From Actinomycetota bacterium (GTDB taxonomy: Bacteria; Actinomycetota; UBA4738; HRBIN12), in NCBI GenBank assembly GCA_036374435.1, contig DASUTU010000153.1:7393-71392 (forward strand): a DNA stretch of 64,000 nucleotides. The letters are read 5' to 3'. The translations under genes and the position numbers were made by a program. The notes under the pieces were generated by a model, which worked only from the letters and a program-made list of their open reading frames with translations, did not search any database and had not been told where the DNA came from. Below are positions 832 through 20,278 of this stretch, piece by piece. Positions within the stretch are counted from its first letter, which is position 1. Each line of letters opens with the position of its first letter.

Positions 832-952
832 GTGTGGCCGATGGTCGCAGCCGGCCGGAGCGGCGTCAACGGCGACCGCCCTCGAGCGTCGAATGCGTGG
901 GACGCGCAACCCCCGGTTCGGTAGGGTCCCCCCGACCCGGGCAGGGAGCTCG

Positions 953-2539
953 ATGCGCACGTTCACCCGATCCGCTTCCCTCATGGCCGCGCTGGCGGTC
1001 CCAGCGGTCCTCGTCGCCGGCGTCGTGGCCCGGCCCGCCACGGCCGAACACGACGTGGGCGAACCGGCGTGGTCGGTGGCGCGCGCTGCCGTGGTCCACG
1101 GTCGCGATCCCGGTGGGTCGGAGCGGCGTCCCACCTCCTTCGAGGTCTTCGCCCGGCGAGGACGGCCCGCCCGGGCCGGGGGAGCGGCCCCGGGCCCGGC
1201 CCCGCGAACCCCGCAGCCCGTGTCGGGGTTCGACGCGTTGTCCGACCCGTTCGCCGTCCCGGCGGACCCAACCGGGGCCCTGGGGGTCGACTTCGTGCTG
1301 GCGGCCGTCAACACGCAGGCCGCGGTCTACGACCGCACGGGTGCGCTCGTCGGCTCCCCGATCCAGCTGGCCGCACTGCATCCCGAGTCCCTGGGCCGGT
1401 TCGCGTTCGACCCCAGGGTCGTCTACGACCAGTACGCGGACACCTTCGTGCTGACCTATCTGGTCCAGCGCGATCGTCCGAAGTACTCGCGGATCATCGT
1501 GGTGGCGATCCCGAACGCGACGGCGGACGACCCGCTGACGTGGTGCGCGACGGCGTTCCTCGGCGACCTGGTGCCCGGCAGACCACGGGTGTGGGCGGAC
1601 TACCCGGGCCTCGGCTACAACCACGATCGCGTCACGATCACGACGAACCAGTTCACGTTCCCGGCGCTCCGGGCCAGGTTCCGCTACGCGCAGGTCCTGT
1701 CGATCCCGAAAGCCGAGCTCTACGACTGCGCGGTCCCGGTGGTTCCGGACGTCTTCGCCGGCACCCAGACCGCCGACCCGTCCGGGCGGCAGTCGTTCAC
1801 GCTCCAGCCGGCGCAGTCGGTCGACGGATCCGGGCCCCAGCACCTGTTGTCGTTCGAGCTTTTCGGCAAGCGGTCCTACCTCGTGGTGTGGCGGATCAAG
1901 AACACGCGAGCCGGGCTTCGGCTCCAACGCGCCGAGATCGGCGTGGGCCGGGCGGGCCGTCCTCCGCTCGGCACCCAGGGCGGGGGAGGGCTGGCCGATC
2001 CGGAGACGTTCTGGGACGCGGGGGACGAGCGGTTGATCAACGCGTACCACGAGGTCGACACGAGGGCCTTGTACGCCGCCCACGCGGTGTTCCGGGACCT
2101 CCGTCCCGATACGCTCACCGGGGCCTACCCCGAGTCCACGATCCGGTGGTACGAGGTGCGACCGACCCGGAGGCTGGGGAGATCGTCGCTGATCCGCAAG
2201 GGGACGATCGGGGCTCCGGAGGTGGACGTGGGGTGGCCCACCGTAGCGACCGACGGGAACGGCTCGCTGTTCGTCGCATACAGTCGGGCCGGGGCCGTTC
2301 GCAGCGAGTTCCTCTCGGCCTGGGTCGCCGAGATCCTCCCGGGGCGCCGGGCCGCGACCCAGACGTTGCTCGCGCCCGGCCTGGCCACCTACGACGCGCT
2401 CCCCGGGCCCGAACGTTGGGGGGACTTCACGGCGATCAACCGCGACCCTCTGGATCCCGCTCGGCTGGCCACGTTCAACCAGTACGCGCTCGACCCGGTG
2501 AGCTGGCAGCAGGTCGTTCACTTCGTCGAACACGGATGA
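953..2539 (+). CDS. secreted hypothetical protein (~528 aa) with N-terminal signal peptide
   Basis: ATG at 953 gives MRTFTRSASLMAALAVPAVLVAGVVARPATA (signal peptide). The rest has normal composition (VYDQYADTFVLTYLVQRDRPKYSRIIVVAIPNAT...) and no recognised family. The 365..2539 ORF upstream of 953 is low-complexity R/P/G overprint. Confidence 0.6.
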   Translation: MRTFTRSASLMAALAVPAVLVAGVVARPATAEHDVGEPAWSVARAAVVHGRDPGGSERRPTSFEVFARRGRPARAGGAAPGPAPRTPQPVSGFDALSDPFAVPADPTGALGVDFVLAAVNTQAAVYDRTGALVGSPIQLAALHPESLGRFAFDPRVVYDQYADTFVLTYLVQRDRPKYSRIIVVAIPNATADDPLTWCATAFLGDLVPGRPRVWADYPGLGYNHDRVTITTNQFTFPALRARFRYAQVLSIPKAELYDCAVPVVPDVFAGTQTADPSGRQSFTLQPAQSVDGSGPQHLLSFELFGKRSYLVVWRIKNTRAGLRLQRAEIGVGRAGRPPLGTQGGGGLADPETFWDAGDERLINAYHEVDTRALYAAHAVFRDLRPDTLTGAYPESTIRWYEVRPTRRLGRSSLIRKGTIGAPEVDVGWPTVATDGNGSLFVAYSRAGAVRSEFLSAWVAEILPGRRAATQTLLAPGLATYDALPGPERWGDFTAINRDPLDPARLATFNQYALDPVSWQQVVHFVEHG

Positions 2540-2660
2540 GACGATCCGGTCCCGGGGCGGAGGGGGGCGGCGTCCCTGGTTCGCGGCTCAAGCCGGCGTA
2601 GCCTCGCGACGAAACCACCCCCCACGAGGAAACCACTCCCACACGGGAGAGGAGGGCATC

Positions 2661-4472
2661 GTGTCCAACGTTCGAAAGCTGATCGCGCTCGCCGCCGTCC
2701 TGGCGCTGGGATCCGTGGCTCCCGCCTCCGCCGGGACCGCTCCCGAAACGGCCCGCACCCGAGAGCCGGTGTCGGTGACGCTGCGGCCACCTGCGGAGAA
2801 ACCGTCCATGGCGCAGCGGGTCGCCCTCGGCCGCGAGCTCATCGTGCGGTTCCGCTCCGGAGCGGCCGACCGGGACCGCGCCGCGGCGCATCTGGCCGCC
2901 GGAGCGCTCGTGGTCGACCGGGTGGCCGGCCGCGGGCTCACGCTCGTGCGGGTGCCCGAGGGCGTGGAGCCGGCCGTCGCGATGCGTGCGTACCGGCGGA
3001 GCGAGGCAGTGGCCTTCGTCGAGCCGAACGTCGAGCGTCCGCTGCTCGAGACCGTGCCGAACGACCCCTTGTTCCCGGAGCTCTGGGGACTGCGGAACAC
3101 GGGCCAGGCGCACGGGCTCACCGACCCGCCACCTCCGACCTTCCCCGGCCTGTCGGACGCCGACATCGACGCCGGCGACGCCTGGGACGCCACGACCGGG
3201 TCGTCGGCCACGGTCGTCGCCGTGATCGACACCGGCATCGACCTGAGCCACCCCGACCTCGCGCCGAACCTGTGGGTGAACGCGGACGAGATCCCGGCGA
3301 ACGGGATCGACGACGACGCGAACGGCTACGTCGACGACGTGAACGGCTGGGACTTCATCGATGACGACGCCGTACCGCAGGACACGGACGCCCACGGCTC
3401 CCACGTCTCCGGGACGATCGCCGCGGCGATGAACAACACGATCGGGGTCGCGGGGGTCTGCCCCGGCTGCCGGATCATGCCGTTGCGGTTCGACCTCGAC
3501 GTGTTCACCGAGCTCCGGGCGATCGACTACGCGATCGCAAACGGCGCCCACATCATCAACGCGAGCTTCGGCGGCGACGTGTTCTCCAAGGCCGAGCGCA
3601 ACGCCATCGGACGAGCGAACGATGCCGGGATCTTGTTCGTCGCTGCCGCTGGGAACGAGTTCGCCGATCTGGACATCTGGATCCCCGGTCTCTCGCCGTC
3701 GTTCCCGGCCGCCTACGACTTGCCGGGGATCGTCTCGGTCGGCGCGAGTAACGATTACGACGAGATCGGGTACTTCAGCGGCTGCGCCCTCGCCGGGAAC
3801 GACTTCTTCGACTGTGTGTTCAGCAACTTCGGGCACGATGCCGTCGACCTGTTCGCTCCGGGCGTGGACATCCTCAGCACGGTTCCCGGCAGCGCGTATG
3901 CCTACTTCAACGGGACGTCGATGGCCTCGCCGCACGTCGCCGGGGTGGCCGGACTGGTCAAGTCGCTCCATCCGGACTACACGCCGCTCCAGCTCCGGAA
4001 CGCGCTGCTCAACTCGGTGGACACGGCGGAGAACCTCACGCTTCTGGCTGACGGGCTCACTCTGACCGATGGGCGCGTGAACGCGGCGGCGGCCTTGAAT
4101 GCGTCGACCGCGACCACCTACCCCGTCAGCTCCGGGAACATCCAGACGGCACAGACCCTGAGGTCCAGGGCCAACGGCAGGGTCTCGTTCCCCGGGAACG
4201 TGAACGACGTGTTCAAGAAACGGCTGCGGAAGGGCGCGCGGTACGCCGTGTTCCTCGACGTCCCGAGGCGGACCGACCTCGATCTGTTCGTGTGGAAGCC
4301 GGGCACGTTCCAGATCTTCCAGGGCCTGAGGCAGCTTGCCGGGGTGAGCGGAGACGGCGCCGGCCGGGACGAGCTGGTGGTGTTCAAGGCGAGGAAGGCC
4401 GGCATCTACTACTTCCACGTGGAGGCATTCTTCGACACGGGCCGGTACACGCTGGAGGTCGCGCGGGTCTGA
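2661..4472 (+). CDS. secreted subtilisin-like serine protease (peptidase S8)
   Basis: SD GGAGAGGAGGG before GTG. Signal peptide MSNVRKLIALAAVLALGSVAPASA. Catalytic triad motifs VAVIDTGID (Asp), HGSHVSGTIAA (His), GTSMASPHVAGVAGL (Ser). Confidence 0.9.
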   Translation: MSNVRKLIALAAVLALGSVAPASAGTAPETARTREPVSVTLRPPAEKPSMAQRVALGRELIVRFRSGAADRDRAAAHLAAGALVVDRVAGRGLTLVRVPEGVEPAVAMRAYRRSEAVAFVEPNVERPLLETVPNDPLFPELWGLRNTGQAHGLTDPPPPTFPGLSDADIDAGDAWDATTGSSATVVAVIDTGIDLSHPDLAPNLWVNADEIPANGIDDDANGYVDDVNGWDFIDDDAVPQDTDAHGSHVSGTIAAAMNNTIGVAGVCPGCRIMPLRFDLDVFTELRAIDYAIANGAHIINASFGGDVFSKAERNAIGRANDAGILFVAAAGNEFADLDIWIPGLSPSFPAAYDLPGIVSVGASNDYDEIGYFSGCALAGNDFFDCVFSNFGHDAVDLFAPGVDILSTVPGSAYAYFNGTSMASPHVAGVAGLVKSLHPDYTPLQLRNALLNSVDTAENLTLLADGLTLTDGRVNAAAALNASTATTYPVSSGNIQTAQTLRSRANGRVSFPGNVNDVFKKRLRKGARYAVFLDVPRRTDLDLFVWKPGTFQIFQGLRQLAGVSGDGAGRDELVVFKARKAGIYYFHVEAFFDTGRYTLEVARV

Positions 4473-4545
4473 AGAACGTCCCTCGTCGAGCTCGGGGGCC
4501 GGAGCGGGCGTGGGCGGCCCGCTCGGCCGGTATCCTGAGCCCTCC

Positions 4546-6255
4546 ATGAGGCTGTCCAACGCGTTCGTTCCGACGCTGCGCGAGGACCCCTCCGAGGCGG
4601 AGGTCCCCTCGCACCGCCTGCTGCTGCGGGCCGGGTTCATCCGTCAGGTGGCGGCCGGGATCTACACGACCCTGCCGCTCGGCGTGCGCTCGATGCGCAA
4701 GATCTCCGAGATCGTCCGGGAGGAGATGGACGGGTCGGGGGCCCACGAGATCCGGATGCCGATCACGCTTCCGGCGGAGCCGTGGAAGGCGACCGGCCGG
4801 TGGGACCTCTACGGTGACCTCCTGTTCCGGCTGACCGACCGGCACGGGCGGGAGATGCTCCTCGGCCCCACCCAGGAGGAGGTGGCCACGCTCCTGATCG
4901 ACGGCGAGCTGCCCTCGTACCGCGACCTGCCGATGAACGTGTACCAGATCGAGTGGAAGTACCGGGACGAGTACCGCCCGCGGTTCGGCCTGCTTCGAGG
5001 CCGCGAGTTCCTGATGAAGGACGCCTACACGTTCGACCGCGATGAGGAGGGCATGGCTCGCTCGTACGACGTGATGCTCCAGGCGTACAAGCGCGTCTTC
5101 GACCGGTGCCGATTGTCGTACGCGGTCGTCGAGGCCGAGCCGGGGCAGATCGGCGGCGGCGTGAACCACGAGTTCATGGCGCGGGCCGAAGTGGGGGAGG
5201 ACCTGTTCGTCGAGTGCGAGAACGGGGACTACCTCGCCGACCAGAAGGCCGCGACCCCGATGCCGCCGGAGCCGGCCGCGCCGGACGCGCTCGAGGAGCT
5301 GACCCGGGTGCCGACGCCGGGTGCCTCGACCATCGAGCAGCTCTCGGCGTTCCTGCAGCGCCCCGCGCGCGAGACGCTCAAGTGCCTGCTGTTCGACGCC
5401 GGCGGCGAGCCGGTGGCCGCCCTGGTGCCGGGCGATCGAGAGGTCGAAGAGGCCAAGCTCGAGCGGCTGCTGTTCCCGGCGCCGGTCCGGCCGTTCGAAG
5501 ACGTCGACTTCGAGACCCGCGGCTTCGTCAAGGGCTTCGTGGGCCCGCAGGGGCTCGGCGAGGGCGTGCGCATCCTGGCCGATCATTCCGTCCGCGGCGG
5601 CGCGAACTGGATCACCGGCGCCAACGAGATCGACCACCACGTCACCGGCGCGAACACCCCCCGGGACTTCCGCGTCGACGCGTACGAGGACCTGGTGTCC
5701 CTGCGCGATGGTGACCGGTGCCCGGTCGACGGCGGCAGCCTCCACGTGGGGCGGTCCATCGTGGTTGGGCACATCTACCAGCTCGGCACCCGGTACTCCG
5801 AGCCGCTCAAGGCGCGGTTCGTGGACGAAGACGGCATCGAGCGGCCGTATTACATGGGCTCGCACGGGATCGGGATCTCGCGGATCCTCGCGGCGGCCGT
5901 CGAGCAGTTCCACGACGAGGTCGGCCTCCGGCTCCCCAGGGTCCTGGCCCCGTTCGACGTGGTGGTCGTGATCGCCAACCGCGACGACGACCGGGTGGTC
6001 GCCGAGGCCGAGCGCCTGTACGAGGAGCTTCGGTCCCGGGGCGCGGACGTCGTGCTGGACGACCGGGAGGAGACCGCCGGGGTGAAGTTCGCCGACGCCG
6101 ACCTGGTCGGGCACCCGGTCCAGGTCGTCGTGGGCCGCCGTGGGGTGGAGGCCGGAACCGCCGACCTGAAGCTCCGGGCCACCGGCGACCGATCCACGGT
6201 GCCGCTCGCCGACGCCGCCGGGGCCGCGATGGACCTGCTCGCCTCCGCGCCGTAG
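4546..6255 (+). CDS. proS: proline--tRNA ligase
   Basis: MRLSNAFVPTLREDPSEAEVPSHRLLLRAGFIRQVAAGIYTTLPLGVRSMRKISEIVREEM aligns with ProRS N-termini. Class II motifs follow: FRLTDRHGREMLLGPTQEE, QIEWKYRDEYRPRFGLLRGREFLMKDAYTF. Confidence 0.9.
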   Translation: MRLSNAFVPTLREDPSEAEVPSHRLLLRAGFIRQVAAGIYTTLPLGVRSMRKISEIVREEMDGSGAHEIRMPITLPAEPWKATGRWDLYGDLLFRLTDRHGREMLLGPTQEEVATLLIDGELPSYRDLPMNVYQIEWKYRDEYRPRFGLLRGREFLMKDAYTFDRDEEGMARSYDVMLQAYKRVFDRCRLSYAVVEAEPGQIGGGVNHEFMARAEVGEDLFVECENGDYLADQKAATPMPPEPAAPDALEELTRVPTPGASTIEQLSAFLQRPARETLKCLLFDAGGEPVAALVPGDREVEEAKLERLLFPAPVRPFEDVDFETRGFVKGFVGPQGLGEGVRILADHSVRGGANWITGANEIDHHVTGANTPRDFRVDAYEDLVSLRDGDRCPVDGGSLHVGRSIVVGHIYQLGTRYSEPLKARFVDEDGIERPYYMGSHGIGISRILAAAVEQFHDEVGLRLPRVLAPFDVVVVIANRDDDRVVAEAERLYEELRSRGADVVLDDREETAGVKFADADLVGHPVQVVVGRRGVEAGTADLKLRATGDRSTVPLADAAGAAMDLLASAP

Positions 6256-6265
6256 GCTCGCCCCG

Positions 6266-6547
6266 ATGTCCGTCCGTGCGCCCTCCCACCTGCGCGAGTT
6301 CGTGAAGATGCGGCCGGAGGTCGAGGCCGTGCTCCAGCACGTCGGGCGCCGGACCTGGGATCTGGTGCTCGTGGACGTCGAGGGGCTGTGGGTGCGCGAG
6401 GAGTTCGAGAGCGAGGAGGCCGCCGAGGCCGCGTGCCTGGACCTCGGCATCCGGATGCACCGCGGGTGGGACGACCAGCGCCTGGTCCGGCGGATGCGCC
6501 GTCGGGACCACTGGGGCCAACCCGGCGGGCAGCGCCGGGCGCGCTAG
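6266..6547 (+). CDS. small hypothetical protein (93 aa)
   Basis: Intact ORF with ordinary composition in the proS-rimP gap (MSVRAPSHLREFVKMRPEVEAVLQHVGRRTWDLVLVDVEGLWVREEFESEEAAEAACLDL...). No family recognised. Confidence 0.35.
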   Translation: MSVRAPSHLREFVKMRPEVEAVLQHVGRRTWDLVLVDVEGLWVREEFESEEAAEAACLDLGIRMHRGWDDQRLVRRMRRRDHWGQPGGQRRAR

Positions 6548-6635
6548 GCGTCCGGAGCCTCTGACCTGCGGATTCGGGCACCATTCGCGCCGGCTCGGCT
6601 ATACTCCTACTGGTCAACGGAGCGGTTTCACCCGG

Positions 6636-12377: not shown

Positions 12378-13226
12378 GTGAGCGGCGAGCGTGGCGGGCT
12401 CCTGCTCGTCGACAAGCCGGCGGGCGTCACCTCTCACGACGTCGTGGACGCGGTGCGCCGGGCGTTGGGGACGAAGAAGGTGGGGCACGCCGGCACGCTC
12501 GACCCCATGGCCACCGGGCTGCTGCTGGTCGGGGTGGGCCGCGCCACCCGGCTCCTCCGGTACTTCGGCGACCTGCCGAAGGTGTACGAGGGCACCGCGC
12601 GGCTGGGGGTCGAGACCGACACCCTGGACGCCGAGGGCACGGTCGTCCGCACGTCCGAGGTTTCGGTCACGCTGGACGACGTCGAGCGGGCCTTCGTGGC
12701 GCTGGTTGGCCCCTCCCTCCAGCGCCCGCCGGCGTATTCGGCGGTGAAGGTGGGGGGCCGGAAGCTCTACGAGGCGGCGCGCGCCGGCGAGGCCCTGGAG
12801 GCGCCGCCCCGCCCGATCCGGGTCGACGAGATCCGCGTGCTCGCGTTCGACGGGACCGACGTCGAGTTCTCCGTGGTGTGCTCCGGGGGAACGTACGTGC
12901 GGGTGTTGGTCGCCGACGCCGGGGTGTCGCTCGGATGCGGCGCTCACCTGCGGCGGTTGCGACGGACCGGGATCGGGCCCTACCGGGTCGCCGACGCCGA
13001 CCCGCTCGGCACGCTGGGCTCCCCGCTGTCCCTCGAGACCGCGGTGGCCCACCTGCCGAAGATCGATCTGTCCGACGAGGAGGCCCGGGCGGCGTCGAAC
13101 GGGAGCATCCTGGCGCCGGCCGGCCTCGACGCGCCGTACGCGGTGTTCGATCGGGGTGGTCGGCTGATCGGGATCTACCGGGACCAGGGCGCGAAGGCCC
13201 GTCCAGAGGTCATACTGCCCCGATGA
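12378..13226 (+). CDS. truB: tRNA pseudouridine(55) synthase
   Basis: GLLLVDKPAGVTSHDVVDAVRRALGTKKVGHAGTLDPMATGLLLVGVGRATRLL (catalytic Asp in GTLDP). GTG start; the long 11538..13226 ORF is in the same frame, but its upstream part is junk. Confidence 0.9.
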   Translation: MSGERGGLLLVDKPAGVTSHDVVDAVRRALGTKKVGHAGTLDPMATGLLLVGVGRATRLLRYFGDLPKVYEGTARLGVETDTLDAEGTVVRTSEVSVTLDDVERAFVALVGPSLQRPPAYSAVKVGGRKLYEAARAGEALEAPPRPIRVDEIRVLAFDGTDVEFSVVCSGGTYVRVLVADAGVSLGCGAHLRRLRRTGIGPYRVADADPLGTLGSPLSLETAVAHLPKIDLSDEEARAASNGSILAPAGLDAPYAVFDRGGRLIGIYRDQGAKARPEVILPR

Positions 13227-14326
13227 CCGAACCGATCACCGCCGCGCGAGAGGCGCTCGTCACCCCGGCCAGGGGCGGTGCGACCAAACGGGTCCTCCAG
13301 GTGGTCGTCTCGGTTGCGATCGTCGTCGGTATCTTCGCGTTCGCCATCCCGCGGATCGCCGACTACTCGGCGGTCTGGGGCACCATGTCCGACCTCTCGT
13401 GGCTGGAGCTATGGTCGCTGATCGGGATCACGGTGCTGAACCTCGCCACGTACTGGTTCGCGAACATGGCGGCGCTCCCCGGCCTGACGCTCGGCAAGTC
13501 CGCGGTCCTCACGCAGACGACGACGTCGGTGGCGAACACCCTGCCGGCCGGCGGGGCCGTGGCGGTCGGGCTCACGTACACCATCCTGCGGTCGTGGGGG
13601 TTCCACCGGCAGTCGATCGCGTTGTACGTCGGCGTTACGGGCGTCTGGAACATCTTCCTGAAGCTCGCCCTGCCCATCTTCGCGCTGTCGCTGCTCGCGC
13701 TCGTGGGCGGCGCCACCGCGGCGCTGGTGGTGGCCGCGCTCGTCGGCCTGGGGGTCCTCGGCGCGGCCGTGACGTTGTTCGCGCTCGCCTTGTGGAAGAA
13801 GGAGTTCGCCCGCCGGATCGGGGACGGGCTCGGGCGCGCCGCCTCCGCGCTCCGTCGGATCGTCCGCCGCCCGCCGATCCGCGACTGGGGCGAACACGCG
13901 GTGGCCTTTCGCAAGCGGACCATCGCCCTCGTGGTCGACCGGTGGCCCTGGCTGACCCTCACGACGGTCGTGTCGCACCTGATGTTGTGGGTCGTGCTCC
14001 TTGCTGCGCTCCGCCACGTGGGAGTGTCGCAGCAGGAGGTGAGCACGCTCGAGACGCTGGCCGTGTTCGCGTTCGGCCGTCTGCTGACGGCGCTGCCGAT
14101 CACGCCCGGGGGGCTCGGCGTGATCGAGCTCGGCTACATCGGCGGCCTGGTCGCGGCCGGTGGGAACGAGCCGCAGGTGGTGGCGGCGGTCCTGCTGTTC
14201 CGGGTCTTGACCTACGGCGTGCCGATCCCGCTCGGCGGCGCGACGTATCTGGTCTGGCGAGGCCGCTCGAGCTGGCGCCGGTCCGAAGCCCCGACGCCAA
14301 CCGCCACCCCGCCGGCGCCGGGTTAA
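13223..14326 (+). CDS. polytopic membrane protein, lysylphosphatidylglycerol-synthase transmembrane-domain / flippase-like family
   Basis: ATG overlaps the truB stop (ATGA). About 8 TM helices with family-typical LFRVLTYGVPIPLGGATYLVWRG and GRLLTALPITPGGLGVIELGYIGGLVAAG motifs. Confidence 0.75.
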   Translation: MTEPITAAREALVTPARGGATKRVLQVVVSVAIVVGIFAFAIPRIADYSAVWGTMSDLSWLELWSLIGITVLNLATYWFANMAALPGLTLGKSAVLTQTTTSVANTLPAGGAVAVGLTYTILRSWGFHRQSIALYVGVTGVWNIFLKLALPIFALSLLALVGGATAALVVAALVGLGVLGAAVTLFALALWKKEFARRIGDGLGRAASALRRIVRRPPIRDWGEHAVAFRKRTIALVVDRWPWLTLTTVVSHLMLWVVLLAALRHVGVSQQEVSTLETLAVFAFGRLLTALPITPGGLGVIELGYIGGLVAAGGNEPQVVAAVLLFRVLTYGVPIPLGGATYLVWRGRSSWRRSEAPTPTATPPAPG

Positions 14327-15030
14327 GACGAACGCGCCGCCTCGTCCGGCTCGGGTGCCGGGGCGTGCGGCCCGCGGTGCAGCGCCAGGTCGCGGATCTC
14401 GGTGACGATCGCGGCGGTGGCCACCGCCACGCCCGATCCGAGGAGGACCCCGGCCACGACGTCGGACAACCAGTGGGCGCCGAGGTAGACGCGGGAGAGG
14501 CCCATGAGGAACGCGAACCCGGCGGCCGCCCACTCCCAGCGACGACGGGCCGGTCCCGCCGGCATGACCACGAGCACGAGCGCCACGGCGATGGCGGCGC
14601 CGGCCACGGCGTGACCGGAGGGGAACGAGAAGCTGCCGCCGGTGTCCACGAGGGCCCCGGAGGGCCGCCCTCGGTGGAAGGTGCTCTTGGACAGGGTGAG
14701 CAGGAGCTCGGCCATCGCCGCCGTCACCGCCCAGACCGCGAATGCGCGCCACCTGGTGCGGACGGCCAGCCAGGCTCCCACCACGATCCGGAGCGGGATC
14801 GTCACGATGCCGGCCCCGAGCACGTTCAAGGCGTGGGCCAGGGCGGTGAGGGGGGCGCTCCTGACGTCTTCCATCCAGCCGTGGACGGCTCGGTCCCACT
14901 CGCCGATGAACCGCACGCTGGTCGCCGGGGCGCGGGCGGTGGGGTGCACGCCCACGCCGGCGAACATCAGCGCCACGACCGCCAGCAGGCCGACCGCATA
15001 CCACAGGGCCCGCCGGTGATCGGCCAGCAC
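14323..15030 (-). CDS. PAP2-family lipid phosphatase (canonical motifs)
   Basis: All three acid-phosphatase motifs are intact: KSTFHRGRP (KX6RP), SFPSGHA (PSGH), SRVYLGAHWLSDV (SRX5HX3D). GTG start lies 2 nt after the upstream gene's stop (TGA-CC-GTG). The N-terminal extension in the ORF track is overprint. Confidence 0.8.
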   Translation of the reverse strand: MLADHRRALWYAVGLLAVVALMFAGVGVHPTARAPATSVRFIGEWDRAVHGWMEDVRSAPLTALAHALNVLGAGIVTIPLRIVVGAWLAVRTRWRAFAVWAVTAAMAELLLTLSKSTFHRGRPSGALVDTGGSFSFPSGHAVAGAAIAVALVLVVMPAGPARRRWEWAAAGFAFLMGLSRVYLGAHWLSDVVAGVLLGSGVAVATAAIVTEIRDLALHRGPHAPAPEPDEAARSS

Positions 15031-15032
15031 GG

Positions 15033-15584
15033 TCAGTCGGTCCCGGGACAGGGCGGCGCGCCGGCCCCGCACAACACGATGCCGAGATCGGCCAGCCGTC
15101 GCACCAGGCTCGCGCGAGGGCGGAACCCGATCGCCTGGTCGGCCTGGAGGACCTCCGTGGGGTCGCCCGATCCGAACCGGTACTCGACCCGGACGCACCC
15201 GCCGGCGAACGTGTAGTACCGGTTGGCGGCGAAGACCGGGTCGAGCGACAGCGGCTCCTCGAACCGTCGGGTCCCCTCCTCGCCGGGCGCGGGGACGACC
15301 TCCACCGCCGCGGAGAGATCGCACTCGGAGACGAGCTCCACGCGCACCGTCCGGATCCCGGTGCGGTCGGAGCTGAGCCAGAACCGGTAGGCGCCGTCGG
15401 TGATCTGGATCCCCTCGAACGACCAGCCGGGCAGCAACACGTCCAGGCACGGCAACATCGTGGCGGTGGGCACGGCCTGCGCGGCGAGCGTCAACACGCG
15501 GGTGGACTCGTCGCCCACCCGGCATTCGGGTGCCACGTCGACCGCCTGGACACACGCCGGAAGGAGGGCGGCCACGGTGATCAT
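15033..15584 (-). CDS. putative lipoprotein (183 aa), unknown function
   Basis: MITVAALLPACVQAVD... signal peptide with a lipobox-like LPAC. Normal composition (FWLSSDRTGIRTVRVELVSECDLSAAVEVV...). Tightly packed between the two PAP2-type genes. The larger 15033..16991 ORF overlaps the real upstream gene and is R/G/P-rich. Confidence 0.55.
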   Translation of the reverse strand: MITVAALLPACVQAVDVAPECRVGDESTRVLTLAAQAVPTATMLPCLDVLLPGWSFEGIQITDGAYRFWLSSDRTGIRTVRVELVSECDLSAAVEVVPAPGEEGTRRFEEPLSLDPVFAANRYYTFAGGCVRVEYRFGSGDPTEVLQADQAIGFRPRASLVRRLADLGIVLCGAGAPPCPGTD

Positions 15585-15604
15585 CGCGACGGCCGCTCTC
15601 CGCC

Positions 15605-17287
15605 TCACGCGAAGACCGCCCAGTTGCTGGCCACGAGCCCCAGCAGCAGCAGGCCGACGATCACCACGGCCAACGTCCGCGCGACCCGTCGCACGCTCCA
15701 CCGCTGGATCGGTATCGGGTCGTGAGCGGGAGCGAGGCGACGGAACTCCTCGAGCAGGTTGCGGCCGTCGCGCCGGATCATCACCCGGAGCTGCGTCGGG
15801 CTGGCCACGCCGCGGGTGGCCGCGAAGGCCTCGGCGATCTCCTCCGGGGTGAAATGCCGCGACGCGACGCGGTACACGGTCTCGGGGTCCGACCGCAGCC
15901 CGAGCACGAGCATCATGTTCGCCAGGTCGACGGCCTGCCGCCACGGCGAGGGACGGACCTGCACGAAGAAGACGTCGATCAGCCGCAGCCGCCGGTCCTC
16001 GAGCATCAGGTTGGCCGGCTTGATGTCGCGGTGGGCCAGGCCCGTCTCCCACAACCGCCGGATCAGGCCGAGGCCCTGGTCGATGACGTCTTCGTCCACC
16101 TCGGCGTCGCCGAGCTCCACCGCGCCGGGGAAGAACTCCATGACGATCATGTACTCGCGCTCCGGCGTGATCTCGACGACCCCGAACGGATGCGGCGTCG
16201 GCAACCCGGCGTCGGCCATCAGCCGCAGCGTGTAGTCCTCGTATTCCACGAACCGCCGAACGGTCTGGAACGGGGTCTCGTCCTCGAGCGCGCCGTACAG
16301 GATCTGACGGCCGAGCTTGTACCAGCGGTCCGCCCGGACGTGGTTCTTGGCGTACAGCTTGGCGAACGCGTACCGGCGGAGCCCACCCGTCTCGTCGACG
16401 AGCGTCAGGCGCAGCGGCGTCGATCCCCCCGACCCCGCCAGGCCGATCGGCCGGACCTCCGCCACGTCCACGCCCAGCTGGTCCCGGACGGCCCGCACGA
16501 TGGCCTGCCCGCGCCGCCCCGAGACATCGAGGTGGGCGGTCTTGCCGCGGCGGAACGTCACCGGGAACACGTCGTTGGGCGCGAACCAGCGGAAGGCGAC
16601 GATCGGCACGGTCACGCCGATCAACACCCCGAGGACCTGGTCGCTCAGGTGATCGACGCCGAGGTAGGAGCGCGCCAACGCCACCGTCCCGACCACGATC
16701 GCCGCCGCCGCCTTGGCCTTGAACCTCGGCCGGCCGGCCGGCACGAGCGCGTACGCCATGCCGGCCAGGGTGACGGCGAGCGAGGCGATCGGCCGCGAGG
16801 GGAAGGAGAACCCGACCCAGTCCGTGGCGATCTCGACGCCGAACGGCCGCGACCGGCCCACGGCGAGCGACGTGGCGTAGGTGACGTACTCCACCGTGAG
16901 CAGGGAACCGACGAACACGGCCAGGTGCCGCCATCGCCGGAAGAGCACCAGGGCCAGCAGCGTGGCCCAGCGCAACCCCCGGAGCGGCCATCGGCTCGCC
17001 AGGCCGTCCAGGAGCTGCATCACGTCCGTGACCGCGCCCACCCGGATGCGGGCGAACGCGCGCACGAGCGACGAGTCGATCTGGTCGATCGCGGTGGCCC
17101 GGGTGCCGATCAGGGCCGCGGCCACCGTGAGGCCGGCCCCGATGGCGACGAGCATCAGCAGGAGGCGTCCGGTCCGGCCGATCTCGCGGGGCAGCGGCGG
17201 GGGTTCCCCCGAGGGGCGCCGCCGGAGGCGGCGAAGGCTCCGCTGGCCGATCGACGAAGGCTGTTCCACCCGCTCCACGCCGCGCAC
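15605..17287 (-). CDS. membrane protein: N-terminal degenerate PAP2-like domain fused to a C-terminal protein-kinase-like domain
   Basis: PAP2 fold is recognisable but its catalytic motifs are lost (LAVGRSRPF, FPSRP in place of PSGH, ARSYLGVDHLSD). Kinase-like part has YAFAKLY (VAIK-like Lys), LAHRDIKPANLML (HRD catalytic loop) and LIDVFF (DFG-like). A final TM helix follows. GTG start lies 1 nt after the upstream OpuAC stop. Confidence 0.75.
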   Translation of the reverse strand: MRGVERVEQPSSIGQRSLRRLRRRPSGEPPPLPREIGRTGRLLLMLVAIGAGLTVAAALIGTRATAIDQIDSSLVRAFARIRVGAVTDVMQLLDGLASRWPLRGLRWATLLALVLFRRWRHLAVFVGSLLTVEYVTYATSLAVGRSRPFGVEIATDWVGFSFPSRPIASLAVTLAGMAYALVPAGRPRFKAKAAAAIVVGTVALARSYLGVDHLSDQVLGVLIGVTVPIVAFRWFAPNDVFPVTFRRGKTAHLDVSGRRGQAIVRAVRDQLGVDVAEVRPIGLAGSGGSTPLRLTLVDETGGLRRYAFAKLYAKNHVRADRWYKLGRQILYGALEDETPFQTVRRFVEYEDYTLRLMADAGLPTPHPFGVVEITPEREYMIVMEFFPGAVELGDAEVDEDVIDQGLGLIRRLWETGLAHRDIKPANLMLEDRRLRLIDVFFVQVRPSPWRQAVDLANMMLVLGLRSDPETVYRVASRHFTPEEIAEAFAATRGVASPTQLRVMIRRDGRNLLEEFRRLAPAHDPIPIQRWSVRRVARTLAVVIVGLLLLGLVASNWAVFA

Positions 17288-17288
17288 T

Positions 17289-18200
17289 CTAGCCCTCGCC
17301 CGCCACGAGGCCGCGCCCCACCAGCCACGTTCGAGCGACCTCGGCGGGGGTCAGGTCGGCCACCTCGACCCGGAGGTTCATCAGGCGGAGCTCCGCGGTG
17401 GTCAGGGAGGCGGACACGCGGTTGACGGCCTCTTCGAGCCGCGGGCCGAACCGCTCGACCGCCGCGGCGTTGGCCACGGGCGTGACGTGCTCGGCCGGTT
17501 GCAGGTGGCGGTCGTCCTCCAGGAGCACGAGGTCGCTTCGGAGGACCTCGGGGCTCGTCGTGAACATCAGGCCGACGTCCACGAGGCCCCGCACCAACGC
17601 CTGCGCGGTGAGCGGGCCGCTCGAGTCCAGGGGGACGAACGAGTCGAACGTGATCCCGTACGTCTCCTCGAGCCCCGGCTGGCACAGCGGACGGCGGGGG
17701 CACTCGGCTGGGCCGCCCAGGGCGAGCCCCTCGTCCCCCGCGAGGTCCGAGAGCCGGGCCACCCGGGCGGCGCGGGCCAGGTCGGCCGAGACGGCGAACG
17801 CGTTTCGGTTCTGCGCTCGGGCCGACTCGAAGGCCACGAGCCCGCGCGCGTCGAGCTCGACGGCGAGGGCCCCTCGCACCACGCCGAGGTTCGAGGAGGC
17901 CGAGCCGCCGGTGACGAACTCCAGCAGGCTGCCGGCGTATTCGGGCACGAGCTCGATCAGGCCTCGCTGGAGTGACGGCTGGACCAGCTCGCGTGGCCCG
18001 ATGTCGAACCGCCGGACGACGCGGATGCCCTCGGCCTCGACGGCCTGCGCGTAGAGCTCGGCGAGCAGAACGCTCTCGCCGAAGTTGAACGAGCCGACGG
18101 TGAGCGCGTCGTCCGTCAGGGCCTGGGGCTCCCGGGGCGGCACCGGAGCGCACGCAGTCAGGATCGCCGCCGCGAGGAGCACCAGCAGCCGGGACCGCAC
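17289..18200 (-). CDS. glycine betaine/choline-type substrate-binding lipoprotein (OpuAC/ProX family), without cognate permease or ATPase
   Basis: MRSRLLVLLAAAILTACAP lipoprotein signal. OpuAC hallmarks TVGSFNFGESVLLAELYAQAVEAEG, ELVPEYAGSLLEF, ECPRRPLCQPGLEETYGI, VLLEDDRHLQPAEHVTPVA. The GTG start is approximate. Confidence 0.8.
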   Translation of the reverse strand: MRSRLLVLLAAAILTACAPVPPREPQALTDDALTVGSFNFGESVLLAELYAQAVEAEGIRVVRRFDIGPRELVQPSLQRGLIELVPEYAGSLLEFVTGGSASSNLGVVRGALAVELDARGLVAFESARAQNRNAFAVSADLARAARVARLSDLAGDEGLALGGPAECPRRPLCQPGLEETYGITFDSFVPLDSSGPLTAQALVRGLVDVGLMFTTSPEVLRSDLVLLEDDRHLQPAEHVTPVANAAAVERFGPRLEEAVNRVSASLTTAELRLMNLRVEVADLTPAEVARTWLVGRGLVAGEG

Positions 18201-18254: not shown

Positions 18255-19190
18255 GTGGAGCGAGCGGACGGGCTCGGTGGCCTGCCGATCACCCCGGAGG
18301 CGAGCGTCGTCACGGTCGGCTTCTTCGACGGCGTGCACCTCGGGCATCGCGCCGTCCTCGAGGCCACGGTCGTCGCCGCCCGCGATCGAGGCCTGCCGGC
18401 GGTGGCCGTCACGTTCGACCGCCATCCGCGCGAGATCCTCACGCCGGGGCGGGAGCCGCGGCTGCTCACGACCGTCGAGCGCAAGGCGGCCCTGATCGAG
18501 GGGCTCGGCGTCGACCTGCTGGTCGTGCTCGAGTTCACCGAAGAGTTCTCTCGATGGCCGGCCGATCGGTTCATGGGCGAGGTTCTCCGGGACGGCCTGC
18601 ACGCCCGGCATTGCGTGATGGGGGCGAACTTCACCTTCGGCCACCGGGCGCTGGGGACGGTGGACACCTTGATCGAGCGGGGCGGCCGGTACGGGTTCGG
18701 CGCCGAACGGGTGGAGCTGCGCGACCTCGAGGGGCTCACGGTGTCCTCCTCGGCGGTGCGGGACGCCGTCTCCCGCGGAGATCTGGAGTGGGCCCGGCGC
18801 GCGCTCGGCCGCCGGTTCGTGCTCGACGGCACCGTCGTGAGCGGGGCGGGACGGGGGCAGGGCCTGGGCTACCCGACGGCGAACCTGCGCACCTGGCCGC
18901 GGCTGCTGCTGCCGGGACAGGGCATCTACGCCGGCCGCGCGAAGGTCGACGGTCGGGCCCACGTCGCCGCGATCGACGTCGGCACCAACCCGACGTTCGG
19001 CACCGAACCGCTCCACGTCGAGTCGTACCTGCTGGATTTCGACGGCGATCTGGTGGGGCGCCCGATGGCCGTGGAGTTCTGGGCGTTCCTTCGGCCCGAG
19101 GTCCGCTTCGAGTCCCCCGAGGAGCTGGTGGCCGCAATGGACGACGACGTGGATCGCACCCGGGCCCTGGTCGACCCCCACGCGCCGTGA
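18255..19190 (+). CDS. ribF: bifunctional riboflavin kinase / FMN adenylyltransferase
   Basis: VVTVGFFDGVHLGHRAVL (FAD synthetase) and GRGQGLGYPTANL...ESYLLDFDGDLVGRPMAVEF (riboflavin kinase). Confidence 0.9.
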   Translation: MERADGLGGLPITPEASVVTVGFFDGVHLGHRAVLEATVVAARDRGLPAVAVTFDRHPREILTPGREPRLLTTVERKAALIEGLGVDLLVVLEFTEEFSRWPADRFMGEVLRDGLHARHCVMGANFTFGHRALGTVDTLIERGGRYGFGAERVELRDLEGLTVSSSAVRDAVSRGDLEWARRALGRRFVLDGTVVSGAGRGQGLGYPTANLRTWPRLLLPGQGIYAGRAKVDGRAHVAAIDVGTNPTFGTEPLHVESYLLDFDGDLVGRPMAVEFWAFLRPEVRFESPEELVAAMDDDVDRTRALVDPHAP

Positions 19191-20278
19191 GCTGGGGCCG
19201 CCACGCTCGCCCGTCCCGGCTGCCGTTGGGTCTCCTCGTGGGCGCACTGATCCTGGCCGCCGTGGGGGCCGGCGCCTGGGCCATCACGCGACCCCGCGAC
19301 GGGTCGGATCGGGTCCAGACCTCGCCTGATCCCCCGACGCCGAGCGAGGTCGCGGCGGCCGCGGAGGGCAGCCCGCCCGGGCCGGCCGCGGCGACGCCCC
19401 CGACCCCGAGCCCTTCCGCGGAGCCGAGATGGCCGCTCGTGGTCCATGGGACCGGCGACGTCAGCCTGGACCCGGAGTACATCTCGGCGTTCCGGTCGAA
19501 CGGATACGGGTGGGCGTGGAGCGGGCTGGGCGGGCTGTTCCGTCGAGACGACCTCACGGTCATCAACCACGAGTGCCCCTCGACCGACATCGTCGCGCCG
19601 CTTCCCAAACAGTTCAACTTCCGGTGTGACCCGGAGGCGCTGCCCGCCGCGAGACGGGCCGGGGTGGAGGTCCTCAACCTGGCGAACAACCACGGGTACG
19701 ACCACGGCCCCGAGGCGCTGCTCGACTCGATCCGCAACATCCGCCGGGCCGGGCTGGTCCCCGTGGGAGCCGGCCCGAACGAGCGGGCGGCGGACCGACC
19801 CGCCTTCGTCGAGGTCGGGGGGTGGCGCATCGCGGTCGTCGGTATTAGCCAGGTGCTCGACCCCGTGAACCAGGTGGCCGAAGGGGACAGGCCGGGGACG
19901 GCCGTGGGCCACGACTTCGACCGGGCCCTCCGGGCCATCCGAGCCGCGGAGCAGGAAGCCGACCTGGTGCTGGTGACGATCCACTGGGGGGTCGAGCTCG
20001 ACACGGAGCCGCGCGACTACCAGATCGAGCAGGCCCGAGAGATGATCGAGGCCGGAGCTGACGCGATCTTCGGGCACCACGCGCACCGCCTGCAGCCGAT
20101 GGACACGTATCGCGGCCGCCCGATCTTCTACGGCCTCGGGAACTTCGTGTGGCCGAACTTCTCGGTGGAGGGCTCCACGACGGCCGTGGCCGAGGTCCGG
20201 GTCTCGGCGGACGGGCGGGTCCGGGGGAGGCTCCTCCCGGCGTTCATCACCGCTCCCGGCCACCCGGAGCTCCGTTGA
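19187..20278 (+). CDS. CapA-family (poly-gamma-glutamate synthesis-like) metallophosphatase, membrane-anchored/secreted
   Basis: GTG overlaps the ribF stop. N-terminal TM LPLGLLVGALILAAVGAGAWA plus a Pro/Ala linker. CapA motifs VINHECP, NLANNHGYDHG, VTIHWGVE, FGHHAHRLQP. Confidence 0.8.
   Translation: MSWGRHARPSRLPLGLLVGALILAAVGAGAWAITRPRDGSDRVQTSPDPPTPSEVAAAAEGSPPGPAAATPPTPSPSAEPRWPLVVHGTGDVSLDPEYISAFRSNGYGWAWSGLGGLFRRDDLTVINHECPSTDIVAPLPKQFNFRCDPEALPAARRAGVEVLNLANNHGYDHGPEALLDSIRNIRRAGLVPVGAGPNERAADRPAFVEVGGWRIAVVGISQVLDPVNQVAEGDRPGTAVGHDFDRALRAIRAAEQEADLVLVTIHWGVELDTEPRDYQIEQAREMIEAGADAIFGHHAHRLQPMDTYRGRPIFYGLGNFVWPNFSVEGSTTAVAEVRVSADGRVRGRLLPAFITAPGHPELR

Follow-up and report, generated by a model that had tools for sequence, protein, structure and literature searches.

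The gene studied here raises the question of what a membrane phosphatase domain can still contribute when its catalytic residues are gone and a kinase has been joined to it. The gene lies in a stretch of 64,000 nucleotides (nt) from an Actinomycetota bacterium (GTDB lineage UBA4738; HRBIN12; assembly GCA_036374435.1, contig DASUTU010000153.1, positions 7,393 to 71,392), which is called the window below and has a GC content of about 72%. At 15605..17287 on the minus strand, a single open reading frame (ORF) with a GTG start encodes a protein of 560 amino acids (aa), in which a six-helix domain of the PAP2 fold is followed by a kinase domain of the size of RIO and Bud32 and then by a C-terminal membrane helix. 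The protein P0001, from a metagenome-assembled genome (MAG) of Actinomycetota and labelled 'phosphatase PAP2 family protein', is 100% identical to this fusion protein. When further copies of the fusion were searched for within the window, none was found. The sequence-only reading of this locus had proposed a regulatory pseudoenzyme domain coupled to an active kinase, and the motifs it quoted, LAVGRSRPF, FPSRP, ARSYLGVDHLSD, YAFAKL, HRDIKPANL and IDVFF, are all present where it had placed them. We suggest that the protein may be a receptor-like transmembrane kinase, in which the dead PAP2 domain and an outer domain sense a cue at the cell envelope. This is the best explanation of the locus, and in our judgement its chance falls a little short of even.

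The homology of the N-terminal half to the PAP2 superfamily is secure and goes beyond a chance match of motifs. The domain covers residues 38-236 (16580..17176, minus strand), as seen with Pfam, a profile match to 5jki, Foldseek and the AlphaFold2 (AF2) model. The Pfam PAP2 model (PF01569) matched residues 124-236 with 29.1 bits (gathering threshold 27.2), and it also matched 66 of 85 family members at E ≤ 1e-3. A profile of 85 family members matched the B. subtilis phosphatase PgpB/YodM (5jki) with E = 1e-7, and in Foldseek the AF2 model aligned to the same structure with a TM-score of 0.82 and a root-mean-square deviation of 3.1 Å.

The residue alignment to 5jki bore out that Lys of the first motif (C1), Gly and His of the second (C2), and Ser and His of the third (C3) have been lost. 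The C1 remnant SLAVGRSRP, which stands in place of KX6RP (residues 140-148, 16844..16870, minus strand), has Ser140 instead of the Lys and keeps R147 and P148; only one of 81 representatives has a Lys in column 140. In the C2 remnant, PSRP replaces PSGH (residues 163-166, 16790..16801, minus strand), with Gly changed to Arg165 and His to Pro166, and S164 is kept. The C3 remnant ARSYLGVDHLSD, in place of SRX5HX3D (residues 205-216, 16640..16675, minus strand), has Ala205 instead of Ser and Asp212 instead of the nucleophile His, so that it reads ARX5DX3D in the alignment, with R206 and D216 retained. None of the three motifs of a competent PAP2 enzyme (KX6RP, PSGH and SRX5HX3D) was found intact in the fusion protein. 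Conserved Arg residues have been added to the domain, R145 throughout the family and R103, R106 and R165 in the close clade. Invariant residues are found on both membrane faces, and those of the cytoplasmic face include Arg and Trp residues (R118, R120, R188, R233). The domain may have retained lipid binding, as had been supposed, although the Asp or Glu at the old nucleophile position could itself fill the phosphate site.

These substitutions are a property of the family and not of this copy. Conservation was counted over 176 homologous ORFs from 160 loci, and a catalytic His at C2 (position 166) or C3 (position 212) was present in none of them. Pro is found at position 166 in 148 ORFs and an acidic residue, Asp or Glu, at position 212 in 167, while each of R147, P148, P163, S164 and R206 is present in roughly 90% of the ORFs or more. 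His213 was found in 112 of the 176 ORFs, the others having Tyr, Gln or Ala. Among about 100 cluster representatives at 50% identity, only one or two carry a His at a catalytic position, and the combination of a lost PAP2 site with an intact kinase was also seen across 150 representatives that are less than 50% identical to one another. Compared with the closest orthologue (L001), the ratio of nonsynonymous to synonymous substitution rates (omega, dN/dS) was 0.14 for the PAP2-like domain and 0.10 for the kinase; more distant orthologues were unusable for this estimate, as dS reaches a plateau at about 0.6-0.9 in this GC-rich genome and inflates omega. In L002, L003 and L004, the identity of the pseudo-PAP2 domain was 65, 63 and 62% versus 69, 68 and 63% for the active PAP2 of the same operon, which is a similar divergence. 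Because the ORF is intact, the substitutions are family-wide, omega is 0.14 and residues of the domain are invariant, decay is rejected. The PAP2-like domain is a conserved pseudo-enzyme under purifying selection and not a decaying copy, which upholds that part of the sequence-only reading. It had named two findings in orthologues that would speak for another view, canonical PAP2 motifs and a mutated kinase Lys or Asp. The kinase residues are never mutated in the 176 ORFs, and the one representative with a canonical PAP2 joined to the kinase (P0234) is a split gene, so that neither finding overturns the reading.

The AF2 model of the fusion protein (mean predicted local distance difference test, pLDDT, 78.6) has a disordered N-terminal tail, membrane helices at residues 38-60, 99-115, 119-143, 165-181, 186-208 and 214-235, and two interfacial helices between the first and the second of them. 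The kinase domain follows at about residues 252-530. A last membrane helix at residues 532-554 (15626..15694, minus strand) would put the end of the chain outside the cell, and in relatives the chain runs on past this helix into an extracytoplasmic Cys-rich domain. The inner loops carry 9, 3 and 3 Lys or Arg residues and have acidic residues only in the N-terminal tail; in the outer loops the charges are balanced. As the kinase comes after helix 6 and depends on ATP, the N-terminus and the loops 2-3 and 4-5 are predicted to be cytoplasmic, and the remnants of C1, C2 and C3 are predicted to face outward, as in PgpB. The loop charges, together with the six helices before the kinase, place the PAP2 pocket on the outer side of the membrane and the kinase in the cytoplasm in this model. 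On its extracytoplasmic face, the degenerate domain keeps and extends a cluster of Arg, Ser and Asp residues.

The kinase is a minimal protein-kinase-like domain on the cytoplasmic side, recognised by Foldseek and Pfam at residues 252-530 (15698..16534, minus strand). Its Gly-rich loop PIGLAGSGGSTPL (residues 280-292, 16412..16450, minus strand) includes GLAGSGGST, and G282, S286, G288, S289, T290 and P291 are invariant in alignment A1; from its position it would serve as the nucleotide loop. The β3 Lys in YAFAKL (K310; 16355..16372, minus strand) is present in all 176 ORFs, and the same is true of H419, R420, D421, K423 and N426 in the catalytic loop HRDIKPANL (residues 419-427, 16007..16033, minus strand) and of D438 in the metal-binding motif IDVFF (15965..15979, minus strand). 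The domain therefore holds a complete set of ATP-binding, Mg-binding and catalytic residues, and we infer that it is active. Directly after the D438 motif comes an invariant RIO-like helix RPSPWRQAVDLANMM (invariant columns 445-459), which starts about 9 residues past D438 in the AF2 model. Since this helix begins almost at once after the metal-binding Asp, there is no activation segment.

The assignment of this domain to a kinase class needs care. The best structural matches in Foldseek were RIOK1, RIOK2, RIOK3, Rio1 of A. fulgidus and PRPK/Bud32, with eukaryotic-type protein kinases (ePKs) also among the matches. Pfam gave sub-threshold matches to RIO1, Pkinase and APH at residues 339-439; RIO1 (PF01163) scored 21.1 against a gathering score of 22, and Pkinase (PF00069) 19.9 bits against 31.7, spanning residues 402-438 only. 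Some relatives exceeded the RIO1 gathering score, among them P0121 with 27.7 and P0122 with 24.3. At E ≤ 1e-3, RIO1 matched 78 of 85 close members, Pkinase 76, APH 28 and Kdo 4, and the Kdo match recurred in 6 of 14 distant members, a larger share than among the close ones. The relative P0161 matched WaaY with 22.1 against a threshold of 20.3. NCBIfam gave the fusion protein only weak matches to Bud32, Rio1, RfaY and KdkA, and a Pfam scan of it found no match to the Kdo/WaaP models (PF06293, PF06176). The fusion protein thus has the catalytic set of the ePKs (β3 Lys, HRDxKxxN and metal Asp) but not their full-length domain, and the RIO-type fold but neither the RIO-type catalytic loop nor a ribosome-biogenesis context. 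The description of an HRD-type kinase stands for the Hanks-like loop, whereas the domain as a whole is a minimal one, like those of the RIO, Bud32 and Kdo kinases.

Before the first helix there is a short juxtamembrane motif, RRRPSGEPPPLPRE (residues 22-35, 17183..17224, minus strand), as a candidate phospho-acceptor or pseudosubstrate. Its form is RRRP[S/T]GEPPPLP at residues 22-34. Of the 172 ORFs in which this site is covered, all have R23, R24 and P25, 170 have G27, and 170 have Ser or Thr at residue 26. RRRP[S/T]G is as invariant as the catalytic residues of the kinase and is kept in the multi-domain relatives. It resembles a basophilic phospho-acceptor site or a pseudosubstrate.

The fusion protein belongs to a large family. 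A search of protein databases at E ≤ 1e-5 gave at least 8,000 family proteins, and the 120 best matches had 59-100% identity and were all from uncultured Actinomycetota. When representatives of 50%-identity clusters were scanned exhaustively with HMMER, 2,022 clusters matched at E ≤ 1e-3, and 496 did so at E ≤ 1e-30. The species genomes of GTDB, when scanned, gave 196 loci, of which the best 80 were all from MAGs. Counts for the GTDB loci below refer to these best 80 of the 196, and counts for the metagenomes to 80 diverse loci with 45-62% identity to the query. The 80 GTDB loci hold 95 fusion ORFs, the locus L117 has two family members close together (937..3477 and 4400..6625), and several MAGs have more than one copy of the family, some on separate contigs. 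The names given to the family automatically clash with each other ('phosphatase PAP2 family protein', 'RIO1 family regulatory kinase/ATPase', 'Bud32' and InaA), and a distant member from an Ilumatobacter MAG is labelled 'lipopolysaccharide kinase InaA family protein' by NCBI.

Some relatives carry additional domains. In P0124 and P0131 (L085), a STAND NTPase with TPR repeats precedes the pseudo-PAP2 and kinase domains (about 1,380 aa for the whole protein), and in P0128 and P0138 (L082, L083) a REC domain with a LuxR helix-turn-helix does so (about 755 aa for the whole protein). P0155 (L081, 652..3426; 924 aa) consists of a canonical PAP2 domain, the pseudo-PAP2 domain, the kinase, the membrane helix and the Cys-rich domain, and the neighbours of its gene are LPG_synthase_TM and a further gene for a canonical PAP2. 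P0124 has a Cys-rich homologue, LPG_synthase_TM and PAP2 as neighbours in an unrelated region of the genome. P0161 (L084, 357..2015; 43% identity) neighbours a Cys-rich homologue, LPG_synthase_TM and a protein with an OpuAC domain. The distant subgroup of P0161 has a catalytic loop HRDFHMGN, similar to Kdo/WaaP kinases, and not HRDIKPAN, and the family may include members of a different substrate class.

In the window, the fusion gene is the second of four genes in an operon on the minus strand, in the order OpuAC-type lipoprotein, fusion, Cys-rich lipoprotein and canonical PAP2. The first two genes are 1 nt apart, the second and the third overlap by 4 nt (GTGA), and the third and the fourth are separated by 2 nt. 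The Cys-rich lipoprotein (15033..15608; 191 aa) has the lipobox LLPAC, and its GTG start overlaps the TGA stop of the fusion gene. Its conserved blocks AQAVPSAT.LPC, FWLDSDRAG and F.GGC include four invariant Cys. It matched no Pfam model and no PDB profile, and a Foldseek search with the model of P0121, aimed at the Cys-rich fold, returned kinases only; within a fused relative, the domain is confidently predicted as an alpha/beta fold. Among the metagenome loci, the Cys-rich domain is in frame with the kinase in 40, is the next ORF downstream in 34 and is missing in 6, of which 4 sit at contig ends. Because it is fused or adjacent in 74 of 80 loci, it is part of the universal unit, which consists of the pseudo-PAP2 domain, the kinase, the membrane helix and the Cys-rich ectodomain; the window has a split version of this unit. 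Two spurious long ORFs overlap the real genes here, one at 15033..16991 (minus strand, 652 aa), which is the lipoprotein gene plus an out-of-frame read through the fusion gene, and one at 15722..17425 (plus strand, 567 aa). At a GC content of 72%, such overlaps between long ORFs of different frames or strands are no surprise.

The first gene of the operon (17289..18200, minus strand) encodes a substrate-binding lipoprotein of the OpuAC type (Pfam OpuAC, 131.5 bits; lipobox LTAC), and its TAG stop lies 1 nt ahead of the GTG of the fusion gene. No ABC permease or ATPase genes are present next to it. The closest solved relatives of this lipoprotein bind choline, betaine, nicotine-sensor scaffold ligands or ergothioneine, and it could act as a sensor partner that delivers a ligand. 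The last gene (14323..15030, minus strand) starts 2 nt past the stop of the Cys-rich lipoprotein and encodes a canonical PAP2 phosphatase (Pfam PAP2, 71.5 bits), in which KSTFHRGRP, PSGH and SRVYLGAHWLSD were found intact by regular expression. It had been noted before that a standalone PAP2 beside the fusion keeps every motif; this is correct for the motifs, but the gene is not the immediate neighbour, as the lipoprotein gene lies between. Convergent with the operon, a gene at 13223..14326 on the plus strand encodes a membrane protein of the LPG_synthase_TM family (MprF-flippase-like; PF03706, 58.8 bits).

The order of the operon is kept in about 75 of the 80 GTDB loci. Because these loci share a general truB-ribF-rpsO synteny, distant members were also examined. 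Of the 80 metagenome loci, 30 have a canonical PAP2, 31 have OpuAC and 18 have LPG_synthase_TM. All three are found again next to distant members at unrelated genomic positions, LPG_synthase_TM in L081, L084 and L085. A PGA_cap/CapA-type gene of the poly-gamma-glutamate capsule synthesis family lies between ribF and rpsO in the window (19187..20278, plus strand) and is conserved in 32 of 80 loci.

Taken together, a degenerate pocket and an ectodomain facing outward, a kinase facing inward, signalling fusions in the paralogues and an orphan substrate-binding protein make up the layout of a receptor kinase. In our proposal, a cue in the envelope would be registered by the dead PAP2 domain together with the Cys-rich outer domain and would alter the activity of the cytoplasmic kinase, so that the signal would run from outside to inside. 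The kinase would then phosphorylate itself, with RRRP[S/T]G as the prime candidate site, and/or cytoplasmic partners. Most likely, the cue would be anionic, a lipid phosphate or pyrophosphate of the type on which the active PAP2 of the operon and the flippase-like protein act, and a ligand brought by the OpuAC-type lipoprotein would be a possible alternative or additional cue. The narrower proposal that the dead PAP2 domain is the receptor for a lipid phosphate or pyrophosphate of the outer leaflet and gates the kinase through its helix bundle is tentative, and we consider it doubtful as it stands; undecaprenyl pyrophosphate would be one candidate ligand, and other carriers or head groups that the partner PAP2 turns over would be further ones.

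Several points weigh against a receptor kinase. The characterised members of the RIO, Bud32 and Kdo groups are mainly ATPases or sugar and lipid kinases and not signalling protein kinases, and the domain of the fusion protein lacks both an activation segment and the usual peptide-binding lobe. The acidic residue at position 212 could cancel the charge of the Arg cluster, which may leave the pocket without any ligand. The N-terminal motif is not confidently placed by AF2 (pLDDT below 50). Only the Cys-rich domain is a universal partner: in the 22 metagenome loci with at least 3 kb on both sides, PAP2 was found in 10, OpuAC in 13 and LPG_synthase_TM in 4. Finally, the genes of the operon include no PP2C, no FHA-domain protein and no obvious substrate gene, the flanks not having been annotated systematically.

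Among the other explanations, we considered that the protein may be a membrane lipid or glycolipid kinase which acts on a lipid-linked substrate of the inner leaflet, as KdkA and WaaP/WaaY act on lipopolysaccharide (LPS). The PAP2-like helices would then be a lipid-binding scaffold, and the flippase-like protein and the outer PAP2 would finish a pathway of phosphorylation, flipping and dephosphorylation. The weak but recurrent matches to Kdo/WaaP, WaaY, APH, RfaY and KdkA, the homologue labelled as an InaA lipopolysaccharide kinase and the Kdo-type loop of the P0161 subgroup are consistent with such a role, as are the missing activation segment, the tethering of the domain to the membrane at both ends, the invariant Arg and Trp of the cytoplasmic face and the lipid-handling neighbours PAP2 and LPG_synthase_TM. 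However, the remnant pocket lies on the membrane face opposite the kinase and thus has no means of bringing a head group to the ATP site, the HRDxKPxN loop of most members is that of Ser/Thr kinases, and PAP2 and LPG_synthase_TM are missing from many loci. The fusions to REC-LuxR and STAND-TPR and the multiple paralogues per genome suit signalling better than metabolism, and we regard a lipid kinase as unlikely. Another view takes the domain as a switch or scaffold that hydrolyses ATP in the way of RIO and Bud32 and so drives or gates a cycle of conformations. The pseudo-PAP2 domain would form a heterodimer with the active PAP2 and control how active that enzyme is or where it is located, and no phospho-signalling would follow. 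This view agrees with RIOK1/2/3 and PRPK/Bud32 as the closest structures, with the NCBI name 'RIO1 family regulatory kinase/ATPase' of some members, and with the fusion of an active PAP2 directly to the pseudo-PAP2 in P0155; the active PAP2 gene also shares the operon, and the two PAP2 domains diverge at similar rates in L002-L004. Yet a canonical PAP2 is nearby in only about 40% of the diverse loci, the invariant RRRP[S/T]G resembles a phospho-acceptor, and the catalytic loop is unlike the RIO type HxDLSEYN. An ATPase switch is rather improbable in our estimate.

It is also conceivable that the PAP2-like domain is still enzymatic by a non-canonical mechanism, for example through Asp212 and His213, since an acidic residue at 212 is nearly general (167 of 176 ORFs) and the phosphate-coordinating R147, S164 and R206 are kept. 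On the other hand, His213 is variable (112 of 176), the interchange of Asp and Glu at 212 points to a role of charge rather than to a nucleophile, the C1 Lys and the general-acid His of C2 are both lost, and chemistry in an outward pocket away from ATP would be unlinked to the kinase, which makes this mechanism very improbable. That the domain is a decaying duplicate of the nearby PAP2, fused by chance, a relic or an artefact of annotation, is refuted by the conservation, and we give it practically no chance. Such a view could point to the Pfam PAP2 score, which is barely over the threshold, and to P0234 from a JGI contig (3300050821), the only representative in which a canonical PAP2 (PSGH, SRAYLGAHWLSD) is joined to a kinase N-lobe. 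P0234 was examined as an orthologue with intact motifs and rejected, as it has 319 aa, ends before the HRD loop and has its remainder called separately, a 290-aa gene following it; a break or rearrangement of this copy is the probable reason. The ORF of the fusion gene, on the contrary, is intact, thousands of members share its substitutions, omega is low and both membrane faces hold invariant residues.

The receptor-like kinase proposed here can be compared with known systems. MviN (Rv3910) of M. tuberculosis joins a MurJ-type flippase to a cytoplasmic pseudokinase, a membrane helix and an extracellular carbohydrate-binding domain (PMC12599244). Both systems are actinobacterial, are located at the cell envelope and run from a polytopic lipid-handling domain through a cytoplasmic kinase fold and a membrane helix to an ectodomain, although this is an analogy of layout only. 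MviN has an active membrane enzyme and a dead kinase (VALT, no HRD, no ATP binding), and the fusion family is the inverse; the folds also differ, MurJ with an ActPs3 kinase in the former and PAP2 with a RIO/Bud32-like kinase in the latter. With the bacterial PAP2 phosphatases (PgpB/YodM 5jki, E. coli PgpB, BcrC and LpxE/F), the fusion family has in common the six-helix fold, the pocket on the outer face, and the R and P of C1, the P and S of C2 and the R and D of C3, and it differs from them in the lost catalytic residues, the added Arg and the fusion to a kinase. Eukaryotic PLPPR/PRG proteins (plasticity-related genes) are PAP2-fold proteins without catalytic residues that signal through cytoplasmic extensions. 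They differ from the fusion protein in being eukaryotic and in having cytoplasmic tails which are not kinases.

On the kinase side, RIO and Bud32 (KEOPS) are the best structural match, with a similar minimal size and no activation segment, and the segment past the metal Asp is RIO-like in the fusion protein (ID..Q.V...P....L..D..N), whereas the loop HRDIKPAN, the embedding in the membrane, the bacterial origin and the lack of a ribosome or KEOPS context set the fusion apart. The Kdo, WaaP, WaaY and InaA kinases resemble it as small, membrane-associated, protein-kinase-like enzymes of the inner leaflet, but the scores are at or below the threshold, the host is a Gram-positive-type actinomycetote without LPS, and a PAP2 fusion is foreign to them. 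The actinobacterial Hanks receptor kinases (PknB-PASTA) have the HRDxKPxN loop and the conserved K and D in common with the fusion protein. In these receptor kinases and in the GlnH-GlnX-PknG system, an extracytoplasmic sensor is combined with a cytoplasmic kinase, and the substrate-binding lipoprotein encoded next to the kinase in the fusion operon recalls the latter. In contrast to the Hanks receptor kinases, the fusion protein has no activation loop, and its sensor would be a polytopic pseudo-enzyme and not a soluble ectodomain.

A literature search for a PAP2-kinase fusion or a pseudophosphatase of this kind found no description, in line with the earlier remark that no example was known, and neither a paper on the microbial kinome nor a 2025 review of bacterial pseudokinases mentions PAP2. 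Beyond the earlier account, the analysis adds the partners in the operon, the C-terminal helix with its split ectodomain, the RRRP[S/T]G motif and a family of thousands. It gives a context to an uncharacterised family of Cys-rich extracytoplasmic domains and exposes the inconsistent automatic annotation of these proteins as 'PAP2 phosphatase', 'RIO1 kinase/ATPase', 'Bud32' or 'InaA'. If the proposal is true, a bacterial pseudo-enzyme would have been re-used as the transmembrane sensor of an active kinase, as the mirror image of the pseudokinase of MviN. Under the narrower proposal of a lipid receptor, the fusion family, which has thousands of members in the abundant uncultured Actinomycetota of soil, would represent an unrecognised and widespread class of lipid-carrier-sensing receptor kinases in these bacteria. 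The broader proposal would already offer a testable candidate for the way in which Gram-positive-type cells monitor lipid phosphates or carriers of the outer leaflet.

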